A stretch of 59,624 nucleotides of DNA. Source: Mariprofundales bacterium (GTDB lineage Bacteria > Pseudomonadota > Zetaproteobacteria > Mariprofundales > J009). The stretch is from the NCBI GenBank assembly GCA_030950645.1, contig JAUZRF010000007.1, positions 1 to 59,624 of the forward strand, in the 5' to 3' direction. The position numbers and the translations under genes were made by a program. The stretch's first letter is position 1. Every line of letters starts with the position of its first letter. This document shows positions 12,431 through 45,418 of the stretch, one piece after another. The notes beneath the pieces are model-generated. The model worked only from the letters and a program-made list of their open reading frames with translations. It did not search any database and had not been told where the DNA came from.

Positions 12431-12551
12431 GTAACTACTCAGCTCACTCCCTGTTTTCCTGATAGCGGCGTTGAAAAATGCGCATTTACAGTCGTAAACG
12501 CCGCTTTTTCGCCTTGCCATCATAAAAACCAGAAGCGATCTGAGCAGTTAC
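12431..12551 (+). mobile_element. MITE copy, 121-bp core
   Basis: GTAACTACTCAGCTCACTCCCTG...CCAGAAGCGATCTGAGCAGTTAC. Flanks CATCGAAA / CCTGTTTC do not match, so there is no TSD. Confidence 0.85.
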
Positions 12552-13127: not shown

Positions 13128-13279
13128 GTAACTACTCAGCACCCATTGAAAACATCCCGTAACTGCTTAGATCGCTTCCGGTTTTCCTGATAGCAAGGCG
13201 AAAAAGCGGAGTTTACTACTGTAAATGAGTATTTTTCAACGCCGCTATCGGGAAAACCGGGAGTGAGCTGAGTAGTTAC
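13128..13279 (-). mobile_element. MITE copy: alpha short module (13128-13164) plus 121-bp core (13159-13279)
   Basis: Perfect 8-bp TSD TATTATTG at 13120-13127 and 13280-13287. Sits 8 nt beyond the RBS of the cytochrome c gene. Confidence 0.9.
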
Positions 13280-13365: not shown

Positions 13366-13442
13366 TGGCGTCCCCAACCGGATTCGAACCGGTGTTGCCG
13401 CCGTGAAAGGGCGGTGTCCTAGGCCGACTAGACGATGGGGAC
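13366..13442 (-). tRNA. tRNA-Glu (anticodon UUC), CCA encoded
   Basis: The reverse complement GTCCCCATCGTCTAGTCGGCCTAGGACACCGCCCTTTCACGGCGGCAACACCGGTTCGAATCCGGTTGGGGACGCCA folds as a cloverleaf. The anticodon loop is CTTTCAC. Confidence 0.9.
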
Positions 13443-14008: not shown

Positions 14009-14651
14009 CGGGTAGATGGATGGGGGTTTGTTGCTTGATGGCGTCAATGCCCTGTTGGCCAAGGTGAATCCGTTCTGATGCCCCGTGTGAAATCCAACTG
14101 TCGATGAGCGCAGCATCGACTTCGGCATGAAACTGCAATCCATACAGGCTGCCGGCGATGCGGAATGCCTGGTTGGGCACTTCAGGGCTGCTCGCGAGAA
14201 GATTCGCATCTGGTGGCAGGGTGAAGCTCTCTCCATGCCACTGAAACAGATGGACGGGCTGAGTTAGGTGCTGAAAGAGGGGATCCTGCGCAGCAATAGC
14301 TGTGGGCAGAAGCGGATACCATCCCAACTCTCTTATCGGGGATGGGGTGATGGTGCCATTTGCGGCCTTGGCCAATAACTGCGCACCAAGACAGATGCCG
14401 AGCGTGGCTTTTTGCTGTGCAATGCACCACTTTAGCAGAGTGAGTTGTTGTTGGATTGCAGGGGTTGAATCATTGGCTGAGGCGGGGCCACCCATGACAA
14501 CTACCCCGCAGTAGTCATGGGCGTGGTCGGGAATGGGGTTGCTCTCTGCGAGCAGGGTATGCAGCGTGATCCCTGCCGCAGTGAGCGCTGAGCCAATCAG
14601 GGCAGGTGGTTCATGCTCCACCTGTTGAATCACGAGAACTTGCTTATTCAC
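13947..14651 (-). CDS. Class I glutamine amidotransferase-like protein
   Basis: GICLGAQLLA nucleophile elbow and LQFHAEV His motif. GTG start. Confidence 0.8.
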   Translation of the reverse strand: MNKQVLVIQQVEHEPPALIGSALTAAGITLHTLLAESNPIPDHAHDYCGVVVMGGPASANDSTPAIQQQLTLLKWCIAQQKATLGICLGAQLLAKAANGTITPSPIRELGWYPLLPTAIAAQDPLFQHLTQPVHLFQWHGESFTLPPDANLLASSPEVPNQAFRIAGSLYGLQFHAEVDAALIDSWISHGASERIHLGQQGIDAIKQQTPIHLPDGNALCQSMVQSWIKLLDPR

Positions 14652-14663
14652 TTTTGTTCAAAG

Positions 14664-14966
14664 GTAACTGCTCAGATTGCTTCTGATTTTCCTGATAGCG
14701 GCGTTGAAAAATGCTCATTTACAGTAGTAAACTCCGCTTTTCCGCCTTGCTATCAAGAAAATCAGAAGCAATCTGAGCAGTTACAGTCATTTTTGGGTAG
14801 GGTGCTGAGTAGTTACCAGCACCCATTGATTGAAAACATCCCGTAACGGCACAGATCGCTTCCGGTTTTTCTGATGGTAAGGCAAAAAATCTTAAGTTTA
14901 CTACTGAGCCTCTTGCAAAACTCATGAGCATTTTTCAACGCCGCTATCAGAAAAATCAGTAGTGAT
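14664..14966. mobile_element. Composite MITE cluster: core (14664-14784), beta module (14779-14816), truncated alpha module (14811-14847), decayed inverted core (14843-14966)
   Basis: The whole cluster is flanked by a perfect 8-bp TSD GTTCAAAG (14656-14663 / 14967-14974). The first core has a 28-bp perfect TIR. Confidence 0.85.
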
Positions 14967-14968
14967 GT

Positions 14969-15175
14969 TCAAAGTCTTACAAAATATGGCAACGCGACCA
15001 AAACGGTGCCGACAATGACAAGCAGATACACATTCGATATAAAATATGGGAACACCATGAGGATGATGCCGGTGCCTTGTGGAACGATTGCCTTCTGTTT
15101 CTTACCGTAGCTAAAGAAAGCAATGCCAATGGCGCCGAATAGCATCCCCCACATTAGTAGCGCTGTATTTTCCAT
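14969..15175 (-). CDS. Small two-TM membrane protein, function unknown
   Basis: 68 aa, strongly hydrophobic. The stop TGA lies inside the right TSD copy of the MITE cluster. Confidence 0.45.
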   Translation of the reverse strand: MENTALLMWGMLFGAIGIAFFSYGKKQKAIVPQGTGIILMVFPYFISNVYLLVIVGTVLVALPYFVRL

Positions 15176-15228
15176 GTTCGTGCGTTATGCGATGGGCAAG
15201 TGGCGAGAACAGGTGCGAGATAACCCAA

Positions 15229-15534
15229 TCATTTGACGGCCTTATCCCATCCGAGCCATACTGGTTTCGCCACAGGGGGCTTCGCATCGCTCTGCATTTC
15301 TAGGTATAGATTTTCGACTTTTTTCCGCGCCCAAGGTGTTTTCCGCAGAAATTTCAGGCTGGACTTCACTGATGGGTCGCTGTTGAAACATTTGATTTTT
15401 ATATGCATGCCCAATTCATCCCAGCCAAAATGGGCAACGAGGTTATTCACAATCTGCTCCAAGGTAATACCATGCAGTGGGTTGTTGATCTGTTTTTGCT
15501 TTTGGATGTCGGGGTCAGGTCTTGTTTCGCGCAT
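15229..15534 (-). CDS. VF530-family (DUF2132) putative DNA-binding protein
   Basis: [25 protein letters not shown]...[20 protein letters not shown] matches DUF2132. ATG 15534 has a GGGGA RBS. The ORF track extends to 15546. Confidence 0.7.
15511..15531. repeat. Left arm of a 21-bp perfect inverted repeat (partner 15896-15916)
   Basis: GGGGTCAGGTCTTGTTTCGCG. Extends to about 28 bp with 2 mismatches. Overlaps codons 2-8 of the DUF2132 gene. Confidence 0.85.
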
Positions 15535-15562
15535 TTTTATCCCCATCTTTGATGAAGCGACT

Positions 15563-15683
15563 GTAACTGCTCAGATCGATTCTGGTTTTTTTGATTGCAA
15601 GGCGAAAAAGCGGAGTTTACTACTGTCAATGCGCATTTTTCAACGCCGCTATCGGGAAAGCTGGGAGTGAGCTGAGTAGTTAC
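15563..15683 (-). mobile_element. MITE copy, 121-bp core, abutting a truncated transposase pseudogene
   Basis: GTAACTGCTCAGATCGATTCTGG...GGGAGTGAGCTGAGTAGTTAC. No TSD. The RAYT-like reading frame stops exactly at its right end. Confidence 0.85.
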
Positions 15684-15871
15684 CAGGTGATAATGGTTGC
15701 TCATCAGGCAGTAGGCGTGACATCGCCAGCCAACCGTCCGATCACATGCTTGAGCACATCAAGAAACATGCTCCTATCGTTGTCAGATAGGTAAATTTCT
15801 GTGCGGCCATTGCCCCGAGAGGTTACATGGTACATAGCTCCGTCATACTCAATGCGTAATGATCTTGCCAT
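15684..15871 (-). pseudogene. RAYT-like / IS200-IS605-family Y1 (HUH) transposase, N-terminal fragment, frameshifted and truncated
   Basis: Translates MARSLRIEYDGAMYHVTSRGNGRTEIYLSDNDRSMFLDVLKHVIGRLAGD. After a 1-nt frameshift it continues CHAYCLMSNHYHL (HUH motif) and ends at the MITE terminus. The catalytic-Tyr half is absent. Confidence 0.75.
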
Positions 15872-21421: not shown

Positions 21422-21530
21422 CGGCACTCCTTGTTTTCCATAAATAAGCCACATTGGGTGTGATCCCAAGTAGCAGCATGTTGCGAACCATACACATGGC
21501 GGCTATGGCTTGCCTAGTCTAATGTAGTCT

Positions 21531-21567
21531 GTAACTACCCAGCACCCCACCAGAAAATAGCTGTAAC
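21531..21567 (-). mobile_element. Solo 37-bp beta short module with its own TSD
   Basis: GTAACTACCCAGCACCCCACCAGAAAATAGCTGTAAC flanked by perfect TGTAGTCT (21523-21530 / 21568-21575). Confidence 0.8.
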
Positions 21568-21573
21568 TGTAGT

Positions 21574-22614
21574 CTAATGACCCCTTTTGCTCAGTAGTAG
21601 GTGTGACCCTTTGTGTAGCAATCGGCTGGCGGAGAGGTCAATACCGCCGCGCCCCCCCTGTTGGTGCCATGCCTCCACCGCTTGAATGTGGCGCCGTCCC
21701 AGGCAGACCGATGCACCAAGCAGTTCACGGGCCATGGACTGCAAGATAGCTGCACGAATGGGCGCGGATTGAAGGCGCCACTTCTGCCATAACACGGCGA
21801 CACCGGCTTGCTGTTTGGTGATGGGAACGGTTTGCGCCAAGGCTTCAATATGCTGTTGTAACCGTTGTGCTTGCGCACTTAGGCGCGTGAATAGTTCAGT
21901 GGCCGGATGGCAATTGCTGCCGTCTGGTATGGTGTTCATGGCGCTGTTCATGGCGGGAAGGAGGGAGTGGCGCAATCGGTTGCGTAGCAGGGTGGTATCG
22001 TGGTTGGAGGGGTCTTCTAGCCAGAGGATGCAGGCTTGCTTGAGTGCGGTGCGCAATGCGGAACCGGGTTGGCGCAGCAGGGGGCGCAGCAGGTGTAGTG
22101 TGCCTAGCATCTGCTCTGATCGGATGCCGCAGCACCCTCGCACGCCAGCACCTTGTAGCAGGCGCATCAGTACCGTCTCAGCTTGGTCATCGCGATGGTG
22201 GGCAAGGGCGATATGGTGGATACCGCGCTGTTTGGCGAGGTCACGAAACGCCGTCATGCGCGCATGGCGCGCTGAGGCTTCGCGGTTGCGCCCTGGATCA
22301 CACTGCACGGTGCGGCAACGAAAGGGGATCTGCCAATCATGGCACCGTTCGGCCAAAATTTGGGCGTGATGCTGGGAGGCGGCATGCCATCCGTGGTCAA
22401 TATGCCATGCCTCGATATGTGGGTGCCATTCTGCCAGTGCCAACAGCAGGGCGGTGGAGTCCGCTCCACCGGAGTAGCCAATCGCCAAGGGTTGTGTGCG
22501 GTCAATCAGTGATTCTGCGCCCACTAACCACGCGCTGGCGGCGGTCAAGTGTGGTCGCTGGCAGTGATTCTTCGCTGGCACAATGCTGCTTTGACGGGTC
22601 TGGCTGGTTAGCAT
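21574..22614 (-). CDS. tilS: tRNA(Ile)-lysidine synthetase
   Basis: PP-loop LAIGYSGGADSTALLLAL. Start uncertain: ATG 22614 lies only 7 nt from the divergent gene's ATG, so a downstream GTG is possible. The ORF track extends to 22797. Confidence 0.8.
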   Translation of the reverse strand: MLTSQTRQSSIVPAKNHCQRPHLTAASAWLVGAESLIDRTQPLAIGYSGGADSTALLLALAEWHPHIEAWHIDHGWHAASQHHAQILAERCHDWQIPFRCRTVQCDPGRNREASARHARMTAFRDLAKQRGIHHIALAHHRDDQAETVLMRLLQGAGVRGCCGIRSEQMLGTLHLLRPLLRQPGSALRTALKQACILWLEDPSNHDTTLLRNRLRHSLLPAMNSAMNTIPDGSNCHPATELFTRLSAQAQRLQQHIEALAQTVPITKQQAGVAVLWQKWRLQSAPIRAAILQSMARELLGASVCLGRRHIQAVEAWHQQGGRGGIDLSASRLLHKGSHLLLSKRGH

Positions 22615-24272: not shown

Positions 24273-24425
24273 GTAACTACTCAGCTCACTCCCAGTTTTC
24301 CTGATTGCGGCGTTGAAAAATACTCATTTACAGTAGTAAACTCCGCTTTTTCGCCTTGTTATCAGAAAAACCGGAAGCAATCTGAGCAGTTACAGCCATT
24401 TTTTGGTAGGGTGCTTAGTAGTTAC
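24273..24425 (+). mobile_element. MITE copy: 121-bp core (24273-24393) plus beta module (24388-24425)
   Basis: 7/8 TSD GTATGATG (24265-24272) / GCATGATG (24426-24433). Inserted between the znuC stop and the znuB start. Confidence 0.9.
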
Positions 24426-25277: not shown

Positions 25278-25309
25278 TGGGATGTTTTCAATGGGTGCTG
25301 AGTAGTTGC
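25278..25309 (+). repeat. Solo alpha short-module fragment
   Basis: GGATGTTTTCAATGGGTGCTGAGTAGTTGC. Lacks the GTTAC left end. Read as the last 8 codons and stop of birA. Confidence 0.55.
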
Positions 25310-28559: not shown

Positions 28560-28712
28560 GTAACTACTCAGCACCCTACCAAAAATGGCTGTAACTGCTC
28601 AGATTGCTTCCGGTTTTCCTGATAGCAAGGCGAAAAAGCTTAAGTTTACTACTGTAAATGAGTATTTTTCAACGCCGCTATCGGGAAAACCGGGAGTGAG
28701 CTGAGCAGTTAC
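28560..28712 (-). mobile_element. MITE copy: beta module (28560-28595) plus 122-bp core (28591-28712)
   Basis: Perfect 8-bp TSD TCCTCTTT at 28552-28559 and 28713-28720. The GTAAC terminus supplies the TAA stop of the upstream lipoprotein gene. Confidence 0.9.
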
Positions 28713-33590: not shown

Positions 33591-33691
33591 GTAACAGCTC
33601 AGGGACGATCTGAGTAGTTACCACCCCTTGAAAATATCTGAGCGTTTTTCAGTGCCGCTATCGGGAAAACCGAGAGTGCGCTGAGTAGCTA
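33591..33691. repeat. Decayed MITE remnants (mini end-to-end unit plus partial core)
   Basis: GTAACAGCTCAGggacgatCTGAGTAGTTAC (33591-33621), then ...TTTTTCAGTGCCGCTATCGGGAAAACCGAGAGTGCGCTGAGTAGCTAC (to 33691). Confidence 0.5.
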
Positions 33692-33726
33692 CCAGCGTTG
33701 AATATGTATGTAAGGAGACAACCAAG

Positions 33727-37484: not shown

Positions 37485-38031
37485 TGGTAACGAACTAGCC
37501 GCGCTGAAGCTTCGGTATCGCTGGCTGATTTTGCTGCTTTTGGCGGCGGGGTTGACGGTTTTCGAGTCACTACTGCCATCGTTTGGCCCTTGGTTCAAGC
37601 CGGGTCTGGCCAATATCGTCACCCTGATCGCATTGGCGCTGCTTGGTGCGCGGGCGGCCTTTACGCTGGCGTTGGCACGGGTGGTGATCGGAAGCTTTTT
37701 TCTCGGTACCCTATTCACCCCCACCATGGTGGTTAGTGCAACGGCCGCACTGGTGGCTGCCGGGACGATGGTGGTGCTGTGGCGTGCCAATATTGGTCTA
37801 TCCTTGGTCGGCATCAGTTTGGCTGCTGCCATCGCGCATATGGTGACCCAGTTCATGGTGGTGGAGTGGTGGATTGTGCAGCAACCGGCACTGTTTTATC
37901 TGCTTCCACCGCTGTTGCTGTTGGCTGCTTTGACTGGCTGGATCAATGGAACCCTTGCCCAATATGTTACGCGTCGCTTGGAATCATGCGGTTATGGTAA
38001 CTACTCAGCACCCTACCGAAAAAGCCTTTAG
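37468..38031 (+). CDS. Gx transporter-family membrane protein (Hpre_diP_synt_I-like)
   Basis: Five TM helices (..GLANIVTLIALALLGARAAFTLALARVVIGSFFLG..). The last ~11 aa are read from a short-module fragment. Confidence 0.6.
   Translation: MPWRSDGNELAALKLRYRWLILLLLAAGLTVFESLLPSFGPWFKPGLANIVTLIALALLGARAAFTLALARVVIGSFFLGTLFTPTMVVSATAALVAAGTMVVLWRANIGLSLVGISLAAAIAHMVTQFMVVEWWIVQQPALFYLLPPLLLLAALTGWINGTLAQYVTRRLESCGYGNYSAPYRKSL
37997..38026 (-). repeat. Beta short-module fragment
   Basis: GTAACTACTCAGCACCCTACCGAAAAAGCC. Lacks the distal GTAAC. Confidence 0.5.
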
Positions 38032-38041
38032 GGTTGCGGCC

Positions 38042-39893: not shown

Positions 39894-39909
39894 GGGTGCT
39901 GAGCGTTAC
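39894..39909 (+). repeat. 16-nt short-module terminus fragment
   Basis: GGGTGCTGAGCGTTAC compared with the family terminus GGGTGCTGAGTAGTTAC. Confidence 0.3.
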
Positions 39910-41150
39910 CTTCGTTCGTTGTTTGTCTCTGCAATCGTGGTCGCATGATGCTTTGGCAGCCCGAGTACGAAGGGGATGGCAGCGAGAGCCAGTGCTGCGC
40001 ATAGCCACCAGATGGCGTGGTATCCGGCCGGCTTGACCAGCCAGCCACAGCCCATGATCCCGACGGTTGAACCGAGTCCAAAACCGGTGGCGGAGAACCA
40101 TCCTTGGGCAGATGCGGCGCGGTTGCGCGGAGCCCAGCGCTGTACCCACACCAGTGCGGTGATGTGAAAGGCGGCGAAGCTGGCGGCATGGAGTAGTTGC
40201 AGCAGCCCCAGACCCCACCATGAGCTAACCGCACCGATACCGACCCAGCGCACCGCGGCCAGCAGCAGGCAGACGGTTAGCACTTTGCGTGGATCAGAGG
40301 CGTGGAGCCAGTCGCTGGCTAGCCACATCAGCACTACCTCAGCCAATACTCCGATCACCCAGTAGATGCCAATATGCCAGCTACTGTATCCCAGTTGCAG
40401 CAGGTAGAGGCTGAAAAAACCGTAATAGGCGCCGTGGGATGCCTGCATCAAAAAACCGGTGGTAATGAGGCGACCAAAGGCACCCGCTGGAGGTTGATTA
40501 TTGGTGTGGTGGGGTTGGTGGGGAGGCAGATTGGTTTGTGGAAATCCCCGTCCGGCAATGGCGGTAACCAGCATCATGGCTGCAATCCACCAGGGCAGGG
40601 TGGTGATGTTGGCGCCGCGAAAGACCCATCCGCCGATGCTGGAGGCAACCACGAATCCCAGCGAACCAAAGGCGCGCAGGCGGCCATAGCTGCGATGGCC
40701 GCTCTCAGAGATGGATAGTGCGAGTTGGTCTGCCAATGGCAGACTTGATGCCCATAGCAGGCTAAAGAGGAGGATGGCAGCGGCCAATAGCGTGGGGAAT
40801 GGGATCCATGGCCAGAGCAGCGCGAGCAGTGCGGCTAGCATGGAACTCATGCTGATCATGCGTATCAGTCGCTTCCCCTCGCCATGATCGGCTAGCCAGC
40901 CGGCAATGGGTGGGGCGATGATTTTCCCTGCCGCCAGCAGGCCGGTCATGATGCCGATGGTGGCGAGGTTCAGGCCCTGTTGCTGCAACCACAATGGGAA
41001 AAATGGCAAGATCAACCCCATGGCCGCGAAGTAGGCGCCATAGTAGAGGCGGATCGACCTCACTTTTGCGGAGATAGGCGGTAGCATGGGCGCGAGGCTA
41101 GCGTTTGCGATGCGGGATGGCTTGGCGGAAGCCATCATGATGGCACGCAC
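39906..41150 (-). CDS. MFS transporter (MFS_1_like / PPP-family-like)
   Basis: 12 TM helices with ..IRLYYGAYFAAMGLILPFFPLWLQQQG.. The true start may be the internal ATG at 41087. Confidence 0.75.
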   Translation of the reverse strand: MRAIMMASAKPSRIANASLAPMLPPISAKVRSIRLYYGAYFAAMGLILPFFPLWLQQQGLNLATIGIMTGLLAAGKIIAPPIAGWLADHGEGKRLIRMISMSSMLAALLALLWPWIPFPTLLAAAILLFSLLWASSLPLADQLALSISESGHRSYGRLRAFGSLGFVVASSIGGWVFRGANITTLPWWIAAMMLVTAIAGRGFPQTNLPPHQPHHTNNQPPAGAFGRLITTGFLMQASHGAYYGFFSLYLLQLGYSSWHIGIYWVIGVLAEVVLMWLASDWLHASDPRKVLTVCLLLAAVRWVGIGAVSSWWGLGLLQLLHAASFAAFHITALVWVQRWAPRNRAASAQGWFSATGFGLGSTVGIMGCGWLVKPAGYHAIWWLCAALALAAIPFVLGLPKHHATTIAETNNERR

Positions 41151-41172
41151 TTTGCTTCAGGTTGGATGGAAT

Positions 41173-41447
41173 GTAACTACTGAGGTAACTACTCAGCTCA
41201 CTCCCGGTTTTCCTGATAGCGGCGTTGAAAAATGCTCATTTACAGTAGTAAACTCCGCTTTTTCGCCTTGCTATCAGGAAAACCGGAAGCGATCTGAGCA
41301 GTTACGGGTGCTGAGTAGTTACCTACTGAGATCACTTCTGGCTTTTCCGGTAGCGGCGTTGAAAAATGCGCGTTTACAGTAGTAAACGCTGCTTTTTCGC
41401 CTTGCCATCAAAAAACCAGAAAAATAAGAAGCGATCTGAGCAGTTAC
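41173..41447 (+). mobile_element. Outer MITE copy, split by a nested insertion (41173-41184 plus 41323-41447)
   Basis: Perfect 8-bp TSD GATGGAAT at 41165-41172 and 41448-41455. Carries a 9-bp internal insertion. Confidence 0.9.
41185..41322 (+). mobile_element. Inner MITE copy (121-bp core 41185-41305 plus minimal short module to 41322) nested in the terminus of the outer copy
   Basis: Flanked by perfect CTACTGAG (41177-41184 / 41323-41330), which is nt 5-12 of the outer element's own terminal repeat. Confidence 0.9.
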
Positions 41448-41472
41448 GATGGAATCAATATTGGAGGCCGAA

Positions 41473-42429
41473 ATGTTTCGCTATCGTTCTTTTTTCATCG
41501 CGCTCATTGTGATGGTTGCAGGCTGTGTGTCGCAACCGCTGCACTTGGTCAATGCCATGGGGGATGACCATGCATGTCAGCCCCAGCCTCGGAATGGGCT
41601 ATGGGGAAAGGTGATGCCGAATCATGTTTCTGACGCCTGTGTGCAGAAACTGACACAAGCGGGCTTTGTGCCGCGCGATGCGGCGGGCATGGTCAACATC
41701 CGCTTGGCGATGGAGGATGGGCAGGTGACGGTGCGAGATTTCCCTAGCGGCGTGCTGTTGCGGCAGCCGAACTTGATGGCGGGCGATACGCTCTTGTCGA
41801 TTGATGAGCAGCGGCCAGATTCGTTGCAGTCTGCCGATGCCATGCTGTTTGGCACCAAGGGGAGTGAGGTGAGCCTACTGTTTGGTCGTGGTGAATTGCG
41901 CTTTCCGCTCAAAATGTCGCGTCTGCCATTGGTGGATGCGACCCTAGCGCCAGGGTTGCCAAAGGTGGTGCCGTTGCATACTGATGGCGGTGAAACAGCC
42001 AGTTCAAATGGTGGCAGCATGGCTAAATCGGTGCTGGCTCAGTCACAAACGCCTTCACCGATCCCCGTGGCTGCAGCCATGGCACCCAATATTGCCGATG
42101 GCTATGCGCAAGCCGATACCGCGCAACCCAATACCGCCCCGGTGTTCGCAACGCCTGCGCTGCCGGTGCGGCCGTTAATTGTGGCTGGGGATCAAATCTG
42201 CCATCTGCGCGACCCGTTTATCGATGTTGGTCGGGTGCAGGAGGTGCGTGGATCCCAGGTGCTGGTCACGATGGACCATATTCAACTGGCATCGGTGCCG
42301 TATACGGATTTTTACCATGTAAATACCCGACCCCAGTGGTCGGCGTTGGCACAATGGCATCCCTGTTCTGGCTCCTCGCCGGTTTTTATGGCGCTACCGA
42401 CGATGAAACGGAACGGGCATCCTCACTGA
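41473..42429 (+). CDS. Lipoprotein with PDZ-like segment, function unknown
   Basis: GGAGG RBS, MFRYRSFFIALIVMVAGC lipobox, and a central ..GDTLLSIDEQ...GSEVSLLF.. PDZ-like stretch. The ORF track starts at 41449. Confidence 0.5.
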   Translation: MFRYRSFFIALIVMVAGCVSQPLHLVNAMGDDHACQPQPRNGLWGKVMPNHVSDACVQKLTQAGFVPRDAAGMVNIRLAMEDGQVTVRDFPSGVLLRQPNLMAGDTLLSIDEQRPDSLQSADAMLFGTKGSEVSLLFGRGELRFPLKMSRLPLVDATLAPGLPKVVPLHTDGGETASSNGGSMAKSVLAQSQTPSPIPVAAAMAPNIADGYAQADTAQPNTAPVFATPALPVRPLIVAGDQICHLRDPFIDVGRVQEVRGSQVLVTMDHIQLASVPYTDFYHVNTRPQWSALAQWHPCSGSSPVFMALPTMKRNGHPH

Positions 42430-45232: not shown

Positions 45233-45418
45233 GTAACTACTCAGATTGCTCCCGTTTTTCCTGATAGTGGCGTTGAAAAATGCCCATTTACAGTAGTAAA
45301 CTCCGCTTTTTCGCCTTGCTATCAGAAAAACCGGAAGCAATCTGAGCAGTTACAACCATTTTTTGGGTAGGGTGCCGAGCAGTTACAGCCAGTTTTTGGT
45401 AGGGTGCTAAGTAGTTAC
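45233..45418 (+). mobile_element. MITE copy: 121-bp core (45233-45353) plus two tandem beta modules (45348-45386, 45381-45418)
   Basis: 7/8 TSD TTCCACCG (45225-45232) / TTCCGCCG (45419-45426). The outer terminus reads CTAAGTAGTTAC, so the gcvPB strand has TAG in place of the usual CAG. Confidence 0.9.

Follow-up and report, generated by a model that had tools for sequence, protein, structure and literature searches.

How two copies of one MITE family came to lie one inside the other, and in which order they arrived, is the question raised by the intergenic region at 41151-41472 of the window, the whole 59.6-kb stretch of DNA analysed here. A 275-bp block of repeats in this region is bracketed by two copies of the octamer GATGGAAT. 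In a first-pass annotation, the block had been read as one element transposed into the terminal repeat of another, and all the coordinates and strings on which that reading was based are present in the sequence. The block is flanked on the left by a divergent gene for an MFS_1_like transporter (39906-41150, minus strand) and on the right by an open reading frame that probably starts at 41473 and is preceded by a ribosome-binding site (GGAGG, 41463-41467). Its product has a lipoprotein-like N-terminus (...VAGC) but matches nothing in Pfam, and we regard it as a putative lipoprotein gene. The spacer between the two would measure about 40 bp once the elements are taken out, and the elements now make up nearly all of the upstream DNA of both genes.

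The host is evidently a Mariprofundus-like zetaproteobacterium. A scan of genome collections with the neighbouring MFS protein returned Mariprofundus and Zetaproteobacteria MAG proteins at no more than 81% full-length amino acid identity, and none of these relatives carries the MITE family. An exact-protein look-up of the same gene gave no match, and the homologue search with the downstream open reading frame gave relatives at 43% and 52% identity only.

The anatomy of the block, which can be followed directly in the sequence, is given in Table 1. The inner element measures 138 bp (41185-41322) and consists of a 121-bp main module followed by a 17-nt piece of a short module; its ends are intact, exact consensus termini, GTAACTACTCAG...CTGAGTAGTTAC. 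An independent repeat search recovered the inner module's inverted arms of 36 nt, as well as the tandem 12-mers and the direct repeat on the flanks. The description of the inner insertion as a complete second copy plus a short module stands for the element itself, which is full and has intact ends, and has to be amended for the short module, which is a 17-nt remnant of the 31-32-nt form. The remnant corresponds to the final 17 of the 31 nt in the A-type short module GGGATGTTTTCAATGGGTGCTGAGTAGTTAC and lacks the 14 nt between two GGG triplets; this variant occurs a single time in the window. That it nevertheless carries the end used in the insertion is seen from the flanks, which mismatch when the right end is placed at 41305 (CTACTGAG vs GGGTGCTG) and agree at 8/8 positions when it is placed at 41322.

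Table 1. Features of the nested block, with positions in the window.
Feature	Position	Strand	Comment
Outer TSD, left copy, GATGGAAT	41165-41172	+	8/8 identical to 41448-41455
Outer left 12-nt terminus, GTAACTACTGAG	41173-41184	+	nt 5-12 are the left copy of the inner TSD
Inner TSD, left copy, CTACTGAG	41177-41184	+	equals nt 5-12 of the outer left terminus
Inner 121-bp main module, GTAACTACTCAG...CTGAGCAGTTAC	41185-41305	+	36-nt inverted arms
Inner truncated short module, GGGTG plus terminus CTGAGTAGTTAC	41306-41322	+	real right end used in the insertion
Inner TSD, right copy, CTACTGAG	41323-41330	+	8/8 identical to 41177-41184, rare G included
Outer remainder, ATCACTTC...CTGAGCAGTTAC	41331-41447	+	joined to 41173-41184, aligns end to end with the family
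Outer right terminus, CTGAGCAGTTAC	41436-41447	+	
Outer TSD, right copy, GATGGAAT	41448-41455	+	17 nt upstream of the likely start codon at 41473

The outer copy has an internal surplus of about 8-9 nt near 41413-41421. Folding of the nested block gave z = -9.7, the main module forming a long hairpin. A central stem-loop followed by a T-run, terminator-like on both strands, lies at 41370-41398 of the outer copy and has an equivalent at the centre of other copies, and a weak promoter-like match (TTGAAA-18-TAAACT) is found at 41225-41254.

Both partners belong to a family that is dense in this DNA. With at most two mismatches allowed, the window contains 54 occurrences of the terminus GTAACTACTCAG, where 1.4 are expected, and BLAST mapping places about 21 main modules (121 bp) and about 14 short modules (31-32 bp) in the 59.6 kb. 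The 12-nt termini extend into 36-nt imperfect inverted arms. A short module is made of a 19-20-nt spacer, either GGGATGTTTTCAATGGGTG (A-type) or AGCCATTTTTTGGTAGGGTG (B-type), and another copy of the terminus; its place at the main module's right end and its orientation never vary (for example at 2727-2757, 13128-13158, 24394-24425 and 28560-28590), and two stand in tandem at 45233-45418, the units ranging from 121 to 186 bp. Most such composites have CTGAGCAGTTAC at the internal right terminus and CTGAGTAGTTAC at the outer one. Short modules that stand alone or survive as remnants were noted at 64-80, 25279-25309 and 37997-38034. Every copy is intergenic, often within about 50 bp of a gene end, and the family occupies 5.2% of the window and 28% of its non-coding DNA. 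Apart from one tRNA, no Rfam family matched in the window; this tRNA-Glu(TTC) gene (13366-13442, minus strand), the only Rfam/ARAGORN match, lies 86 bp from the composite at 13128-13279, whose TSD is TATTATTG.

The insertion signature of the family was examined by taking the outermost termini of each unit and comparing the 8 nt on each side, with 462 non-cognate flank pairs as controls. The flanks agreed at 8/8 positions in 9 of 22 units and at 7/8 in three more, while none of the 462 non-cognate pairs reached 7/8 or better. The nine perfect duplications are GTTGGGGA, GGGATAAG, TATTATTG, CTTGATTC, TGTAGTCT, TCCTCTTT, ATGTCAGG, GATGGAAT and CTACTGAG, and a tenth perfect pair, GTTCAAAG, surrounds the array at 14664-14966. 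An 8-bp TSD is hence observed directly across the family, whose members, short and bounded by terminal inverted repeats, with a TSD of fixed length and many dispersed copies devoid of coding capacity, are MITEs. At 2606-2757, 13128-13279 and 28560-28712 the TSD lies outside the short module, and the composite of main and short module is therefore the mobile unit.

Five full copies (12431, 15563, 20718, 48935 and 53425) have no recognisable TSD. Swapped flanks, a sign of recombination between copies, were sought among them, and no flank pair matched in either orientation. We also rejected the idea that short modules are what is left of outer elements wrecked by nesting: their spacers are unrelated to the subterminal sequence of the main module, and no internal TSD flanks the main modules. 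Two rearranged members deserve mention. At 21523-21575, a 37-bp remnant (a B-type short module plus GTAAC) sits within the perfect TSD TGTAGTCT and looks like either a composite whose 121-bp main module was lost between ACTG microhomologies or an excision footprint. At 33591-33692, a cluster begins with a 31-bp 'mini' main module, composed of the left terminus and the last 19 nt of the right end, which is directly followed by an inverted composite from which the 12-nt terminus and a large part of the main module are absent; the cluster has no flanking TSD.

Against this background, the octamer on both sides of the inner element can be assessed. Its match alone is weak evidence because the octamer is itself terminus sequence. 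The two copies share, in addition, a G at position 10 of the terminus, which among about 60 family termini recurs at one other (9070). At 41323, exactly the first four nucleotides of a terminus (GTAA) are missing, so that 4 and 8 add up to 12, and the complete 12-nt terminus at 41173 has no body attached. The inner element, with both of its termini, is thus bracketed by a duplication of family-typical length made of host-element sequence, and the proposal of a genuine 8-bp TSD generated inside a resident terminus is borne out. When 41185-41330 was removed in silico, as the annotation had suggested, the restored outer copy, 129 nt long, aligned over its entire length with 19 other copies, a colinearity that, like both TSDs, is directly observed. 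The outer copy had also been credited with a TSD of its own, and GATGGAAT indeed matches at 8/8 positions on both sides. Its presence on both sides identifies 41173 and 41447 as the two ends of one insertion; the chance of a perfect non-family 8-mer flanking both positions is about 1 in 65,000.

The two partners differ markedly in their divergence. The inner main module shares 97.5% identity with the consensus and 96.7% with the copy at 2606. Its nearest relatives, at 13159 and 2606, each have an A-type short module. The restored outer copy, at 82% identity to the consensus, is the most diverged full-length copy, and its nearest relative is the copy at 12431. This pattern fits a young element striking an old resident copy and, together with two TSDs at the norm length of the family, supports the two sequential transpositions that had been proposed. 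We consider it very probable that the locus records two successive insertions of ISBst12-type MITEs, the inner one into the left terminus of a resident copy.

Three other origins were weighed against this reading. The nesting may have formed at another locus, the 275-bp block then having moved here by means of its outer termini GTAACTACTGAG and CTGAGCAGTTAC, in which case GATGGAAT would be the last duplication to have been made. Both outer termini are complete after the inner insertion, the family does move composites with extra internal termini (their TSDs lying outside the short modules), and a single TSD surrounds two elements at the array 14664-14966, all of which speaks for such a transfer. 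It costs one more event than the simple model, though, and neither a second copy of the block nor of the inner variant is present in the window; the high divergence of the outer copy moreover argues for long immobility, and we regard this course of events as unlikely. An assembly error, in which a short-read assembler mis-threaded two repeat copies, has to be considered since the contig is exactly as long as the window, which suggests a metagenomic assembly, and related MAGs break at these repeats, with copies at contig ends. Such a mis-join would not yield an exact family-length TSD at intact termini, nor a matching outer TSD; the copies differ by about 9% and by indels, enough for unique k-mers, and about 20 other copies in the window were traversed cleanly, and we consider an artefact very unlikely.

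The annotation had itself named a tandem duplication of element ends as the explanation that could undo its reading, and a broader form of it, without any nesting, would have neighbouring copies and a stray terminus joined by tandem duplication, slippage or end recombination, the repeat of CTACTGAG reflecting terminus homology. The octamer being terminus sequence, two termini would match at 7/8 positions anyway, and microhomology deletions and odd end-to-end junctions do occur elsewhere in the family. The bodies of the inner and outer copies are only about 91% identical, though, and belong to different subfamilies, which excludes the tandem duplication of one element, and the inner boundaries are intact consensus termini. 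Such joining also fails to account for the body-less left terminus, for the loss of exactly 4 nt at 41323, for the rare G shared at position 10 and for the perfect non-family 8-mers flanking 41173 and 41447, and we judge it highly improbable.

An outer-only or empty allele was found in none of the collections searched, which contain no close relative of this genome; a search for sequencing runs carrying the region found none, and a metagenome scan with the 19-nt left flank gave five unrelated chance matches only. Because neither allele was found, the order of events is read from the anatomy and the divergence alone.

According to the two-insertion reading, a 129-bp copy would have entered the spacer of about 40 bp between the divergent MFS transporter gene and the putative lipoprotein gene, staggered cuts 8 bp apart and gap repair duplicating GATGGAAT. 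At a later time, a 138-bp copy from another and younger subfamily, made of a main module and the short-module remnant on which its functional right end would sit, would have integrated through cuts after nt 4 and nt 12 of the resident left terminus, repair duplicating CTACTGAG. The outer left terminus is still complete at 41173-41184 because the TSD regenerates nt 5-12, and the whole 275-bp block could in principle transpose as a unit. In both steps, a DDE transposase would have been supplied in trans from elsewhere in the genome. The two events probably took place in this order at this locus, rather than the nested block arriving whole, and the choice of target was presumably random.

The ends of the elements point to their parentage. 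The 12-nt terminus GTAACTACTCAG and the 8-bp TSD match the ends of single-ORF insertion sequences of the IS66 family (ISBst12 group) from five phyla, and the termini start with 5'-GTAA and are GTAACTAYTCAG-like, as the ends of this group are. IS66 elements have 20-30-bp inverted repeats starting with GTAAGCG and generate 8-bp direct repeats (PMC11946415). ISDge4, from the single-ORF ISBst12 group, is bounded by the terminal inverted repeats GTGACTACTCAGCA and GTAACTGCTCAGCA, with an 8-bp direct repeat, and was seen to transpose in experiments (PMC12898284). An IS66-like element of 1,635 bp on plasmid pHTA426 of Geobacillus kaustophilus (14107-15741) has the ends GTATCTATTCAGCCC / GTAACTATTCAGCCC and the TSD GACGAGTT, and its transposase contains the Pfam domains DDE_Tnp_IS66 (PF03050, E = 2e-64) and zf-IS66. 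The terminus of the window elements, GTAACTACTCAG, was found unchanged at both ends of insertion sequences from Bacillus thuringiensis, where no 8-bp TSD was seen, and from Leptolyngbya, where the TSD AGAGTATC is perfect. It differs by 1-3 nt from the ends in Geobacillus, in Planococcus (GTAACTACTTAG at both ends, perfect 8-bp TSD TTTAATTT) and in Chlorohelix (ends GTAACAATTCAG / GTAACAGTTCAG, perfect 8-bp TSD TTCAATTT).

By its 12-nt terminus and its 8-bp TSD, the family is evidently an ISBst12-type (IS66-family) MITE, and within it the short-module end GTAACTACTCAGCACCC most resembles a true insertion sequence end. The likeness to ISBst12, ISDge4 and the pHTA426 element lies in the terminal 12 nt, which are identical or nearly so, and in the 8-bp TSDs. 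Unlike these insertion sequences, the window elements measure 121-186 bp, carry no transposase and have an unrelated, long imperfect palindrome as interior. With three ISBst12-type transposases as queries, tblastn detected no cognate IS66-type transposase, either in the window or across the zetaproteobacterial loci that were fetched, about 1 Mb in all; an ISBst12-type transposase is presumably what mobilises the family.

The annotation had further taken the nested copy as a sign that the family's own termini can be targets, and had suggested a survey for their over-representation. We simulated 22 sequential random insertions into the permissive non-coding space of the window. A target wholly inside a 12-nt terminus arose at a mean of 0.23 per run, and at least one such case occurred in 21% of the runs (P = 0.21). 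Targets within 12 nt on either side of an outer end had a mean of 0.79, with a probability of 0.19 for at least two, and nesting anywhere in a resident element had a mean of 3.15 per run, one such case being observed. As MITEs make up 28% of the non-coding DNA, one terminus insertion is expected by chance. Over-representation was thus not found: there is no evidence of a preference for termini as targets, and the case is compatible with random insertion.

Nor do the two clustered arrays, for which insertion into termini had been offered as a likely route, support such a role. The region 2598-2898 reads GTTGGGGA, A, GTTGGGGATAAG, B, GGGATAAG, from which it appears that an original GTTGGGGATAAG was struck twice, at targets overlapping by 4 bp. 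The array 2606-2890 consequently consists of two side-by-side insertions into genomic targets, the second 4 bp away from where the first one ends, and neither terminus was struck. At 14656-14974, two head-to-head composites are enclosed in one perfect TSD, GTTCAAAG (14656-14663 and 14967-14974), and no 8-bp TSD surrounds either element alone. A complete composite abuts an inverted one (14817-14966) that is truncated at its end, 9 nt of its short-module terminus being absent at the junction; beside the TSD, precisely the 12 nt of its left terminus are also absent, and it has a 14-nt internal insertion. This array is a different rearrangement, which no simple or parsimonious insertion history fits and which stays unexplained. 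Terminus junctions that simple insertion does not explain are present at 14664-14966, at 33591-33692 and on a contig of a related MAG (L068:4190-4254), and processes beyond clean transposition therefore also act on the ends of the family.

IS30 has a demonstrated strong preference for its own inverted repeats as targets, and an ISBst12-type transposase might likewise favour the ends of resident copies, so that one end-directed process would build the multi-terminus arrays. Such a process would cover the target at 41177-41184, the site at 2758-2769 and a set of head-to-head and truncated-end junctions (14805-14824, 33610-33627, L068:4190-4210); the short modules might also be among its products. 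The resemblance to IS30 lies in an insertion into or beside the end of a resident member of the element's own family; the difference is that the window offers a single such case and a further insertion 4 bp away from an end, compatible with random insertion. We consider such an end-directed process improbable.

The family extends beyond this genome. In one frame, the main module can be read without a stop through all 40 codons, or through 51 with a B-type short module, and a search with the translated frame retrieved five spurious ORFs, after which two contigs were fetched. The family is present in other NCBI Mariprofundales MAGs, where one copy has a 7/8 TSD, and read-throughs of the MITE are annotated as 'hypothetical proteins' in at least three of them. 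The copies in these related MAGs lie at contig ends (L068:4042-4254; L069:1-217), from which it follows that the repeats break short-read assemblies. At L068:4181-4254, a short-module terminus is cut to CTGA and directly abuts TAACGACTCAG... from a further main module, possibly through a second insertion into a terminus; the contig ends before any TSD. An IMG/VR scan with a 21-nt core returned no copies.

Bacterial MITEs include Correia in Neisseria, Nezha in cyanobacteria, RUP in Streptococcus pneumoniae and MITEAba12. Like these, the present family is short, non-coding and intergenic, with terminal inverted repeats, TSDs, a hairpin body and a high copy number. It differs from them in its parent, which is IS66/ISBst12 rather than IS630/Tc1, IS1595 or others, in its 8-bp TSDs, which replace TA or 9-bp duplications, and in its modular build, with one or two extra short modules at the right end. 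Within the library searched, no paper was found to mention both Zetaproteobacteria and MITEs.

Nested insertion itself is a well-known, ordinary phenomenon, and the locus bears its textbook signature. Nested insertions of transposable elements are routine in plant and animal genomes, for instance among MULEs and MITEs in rice and maize (PMC3903597). As in those cases, the TSD consists of host-element sequence, and the outer element is rebuilt by deleting the inner one and one copy of the TSD. Unlike them, the present case comes from a bacterium with a compact genome and involves two partners of one family, and the 12-nt terminus that served as target was regenerated rather than destroyed.

For the family, the nested insertion gives the relative order of two transpositions and shows that the composite of main and short module is the moving unit. 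The more useful by-product is the assignment of a very dense MITE family to the single-ORF ISBst12 branch of IS66, which has been little studied. Its consequences for the clade are fragmented MAG assemblies and spurious 'hypothetical protein' calls, and its repeats, which lie directly upstream of start codons, may influence expression.
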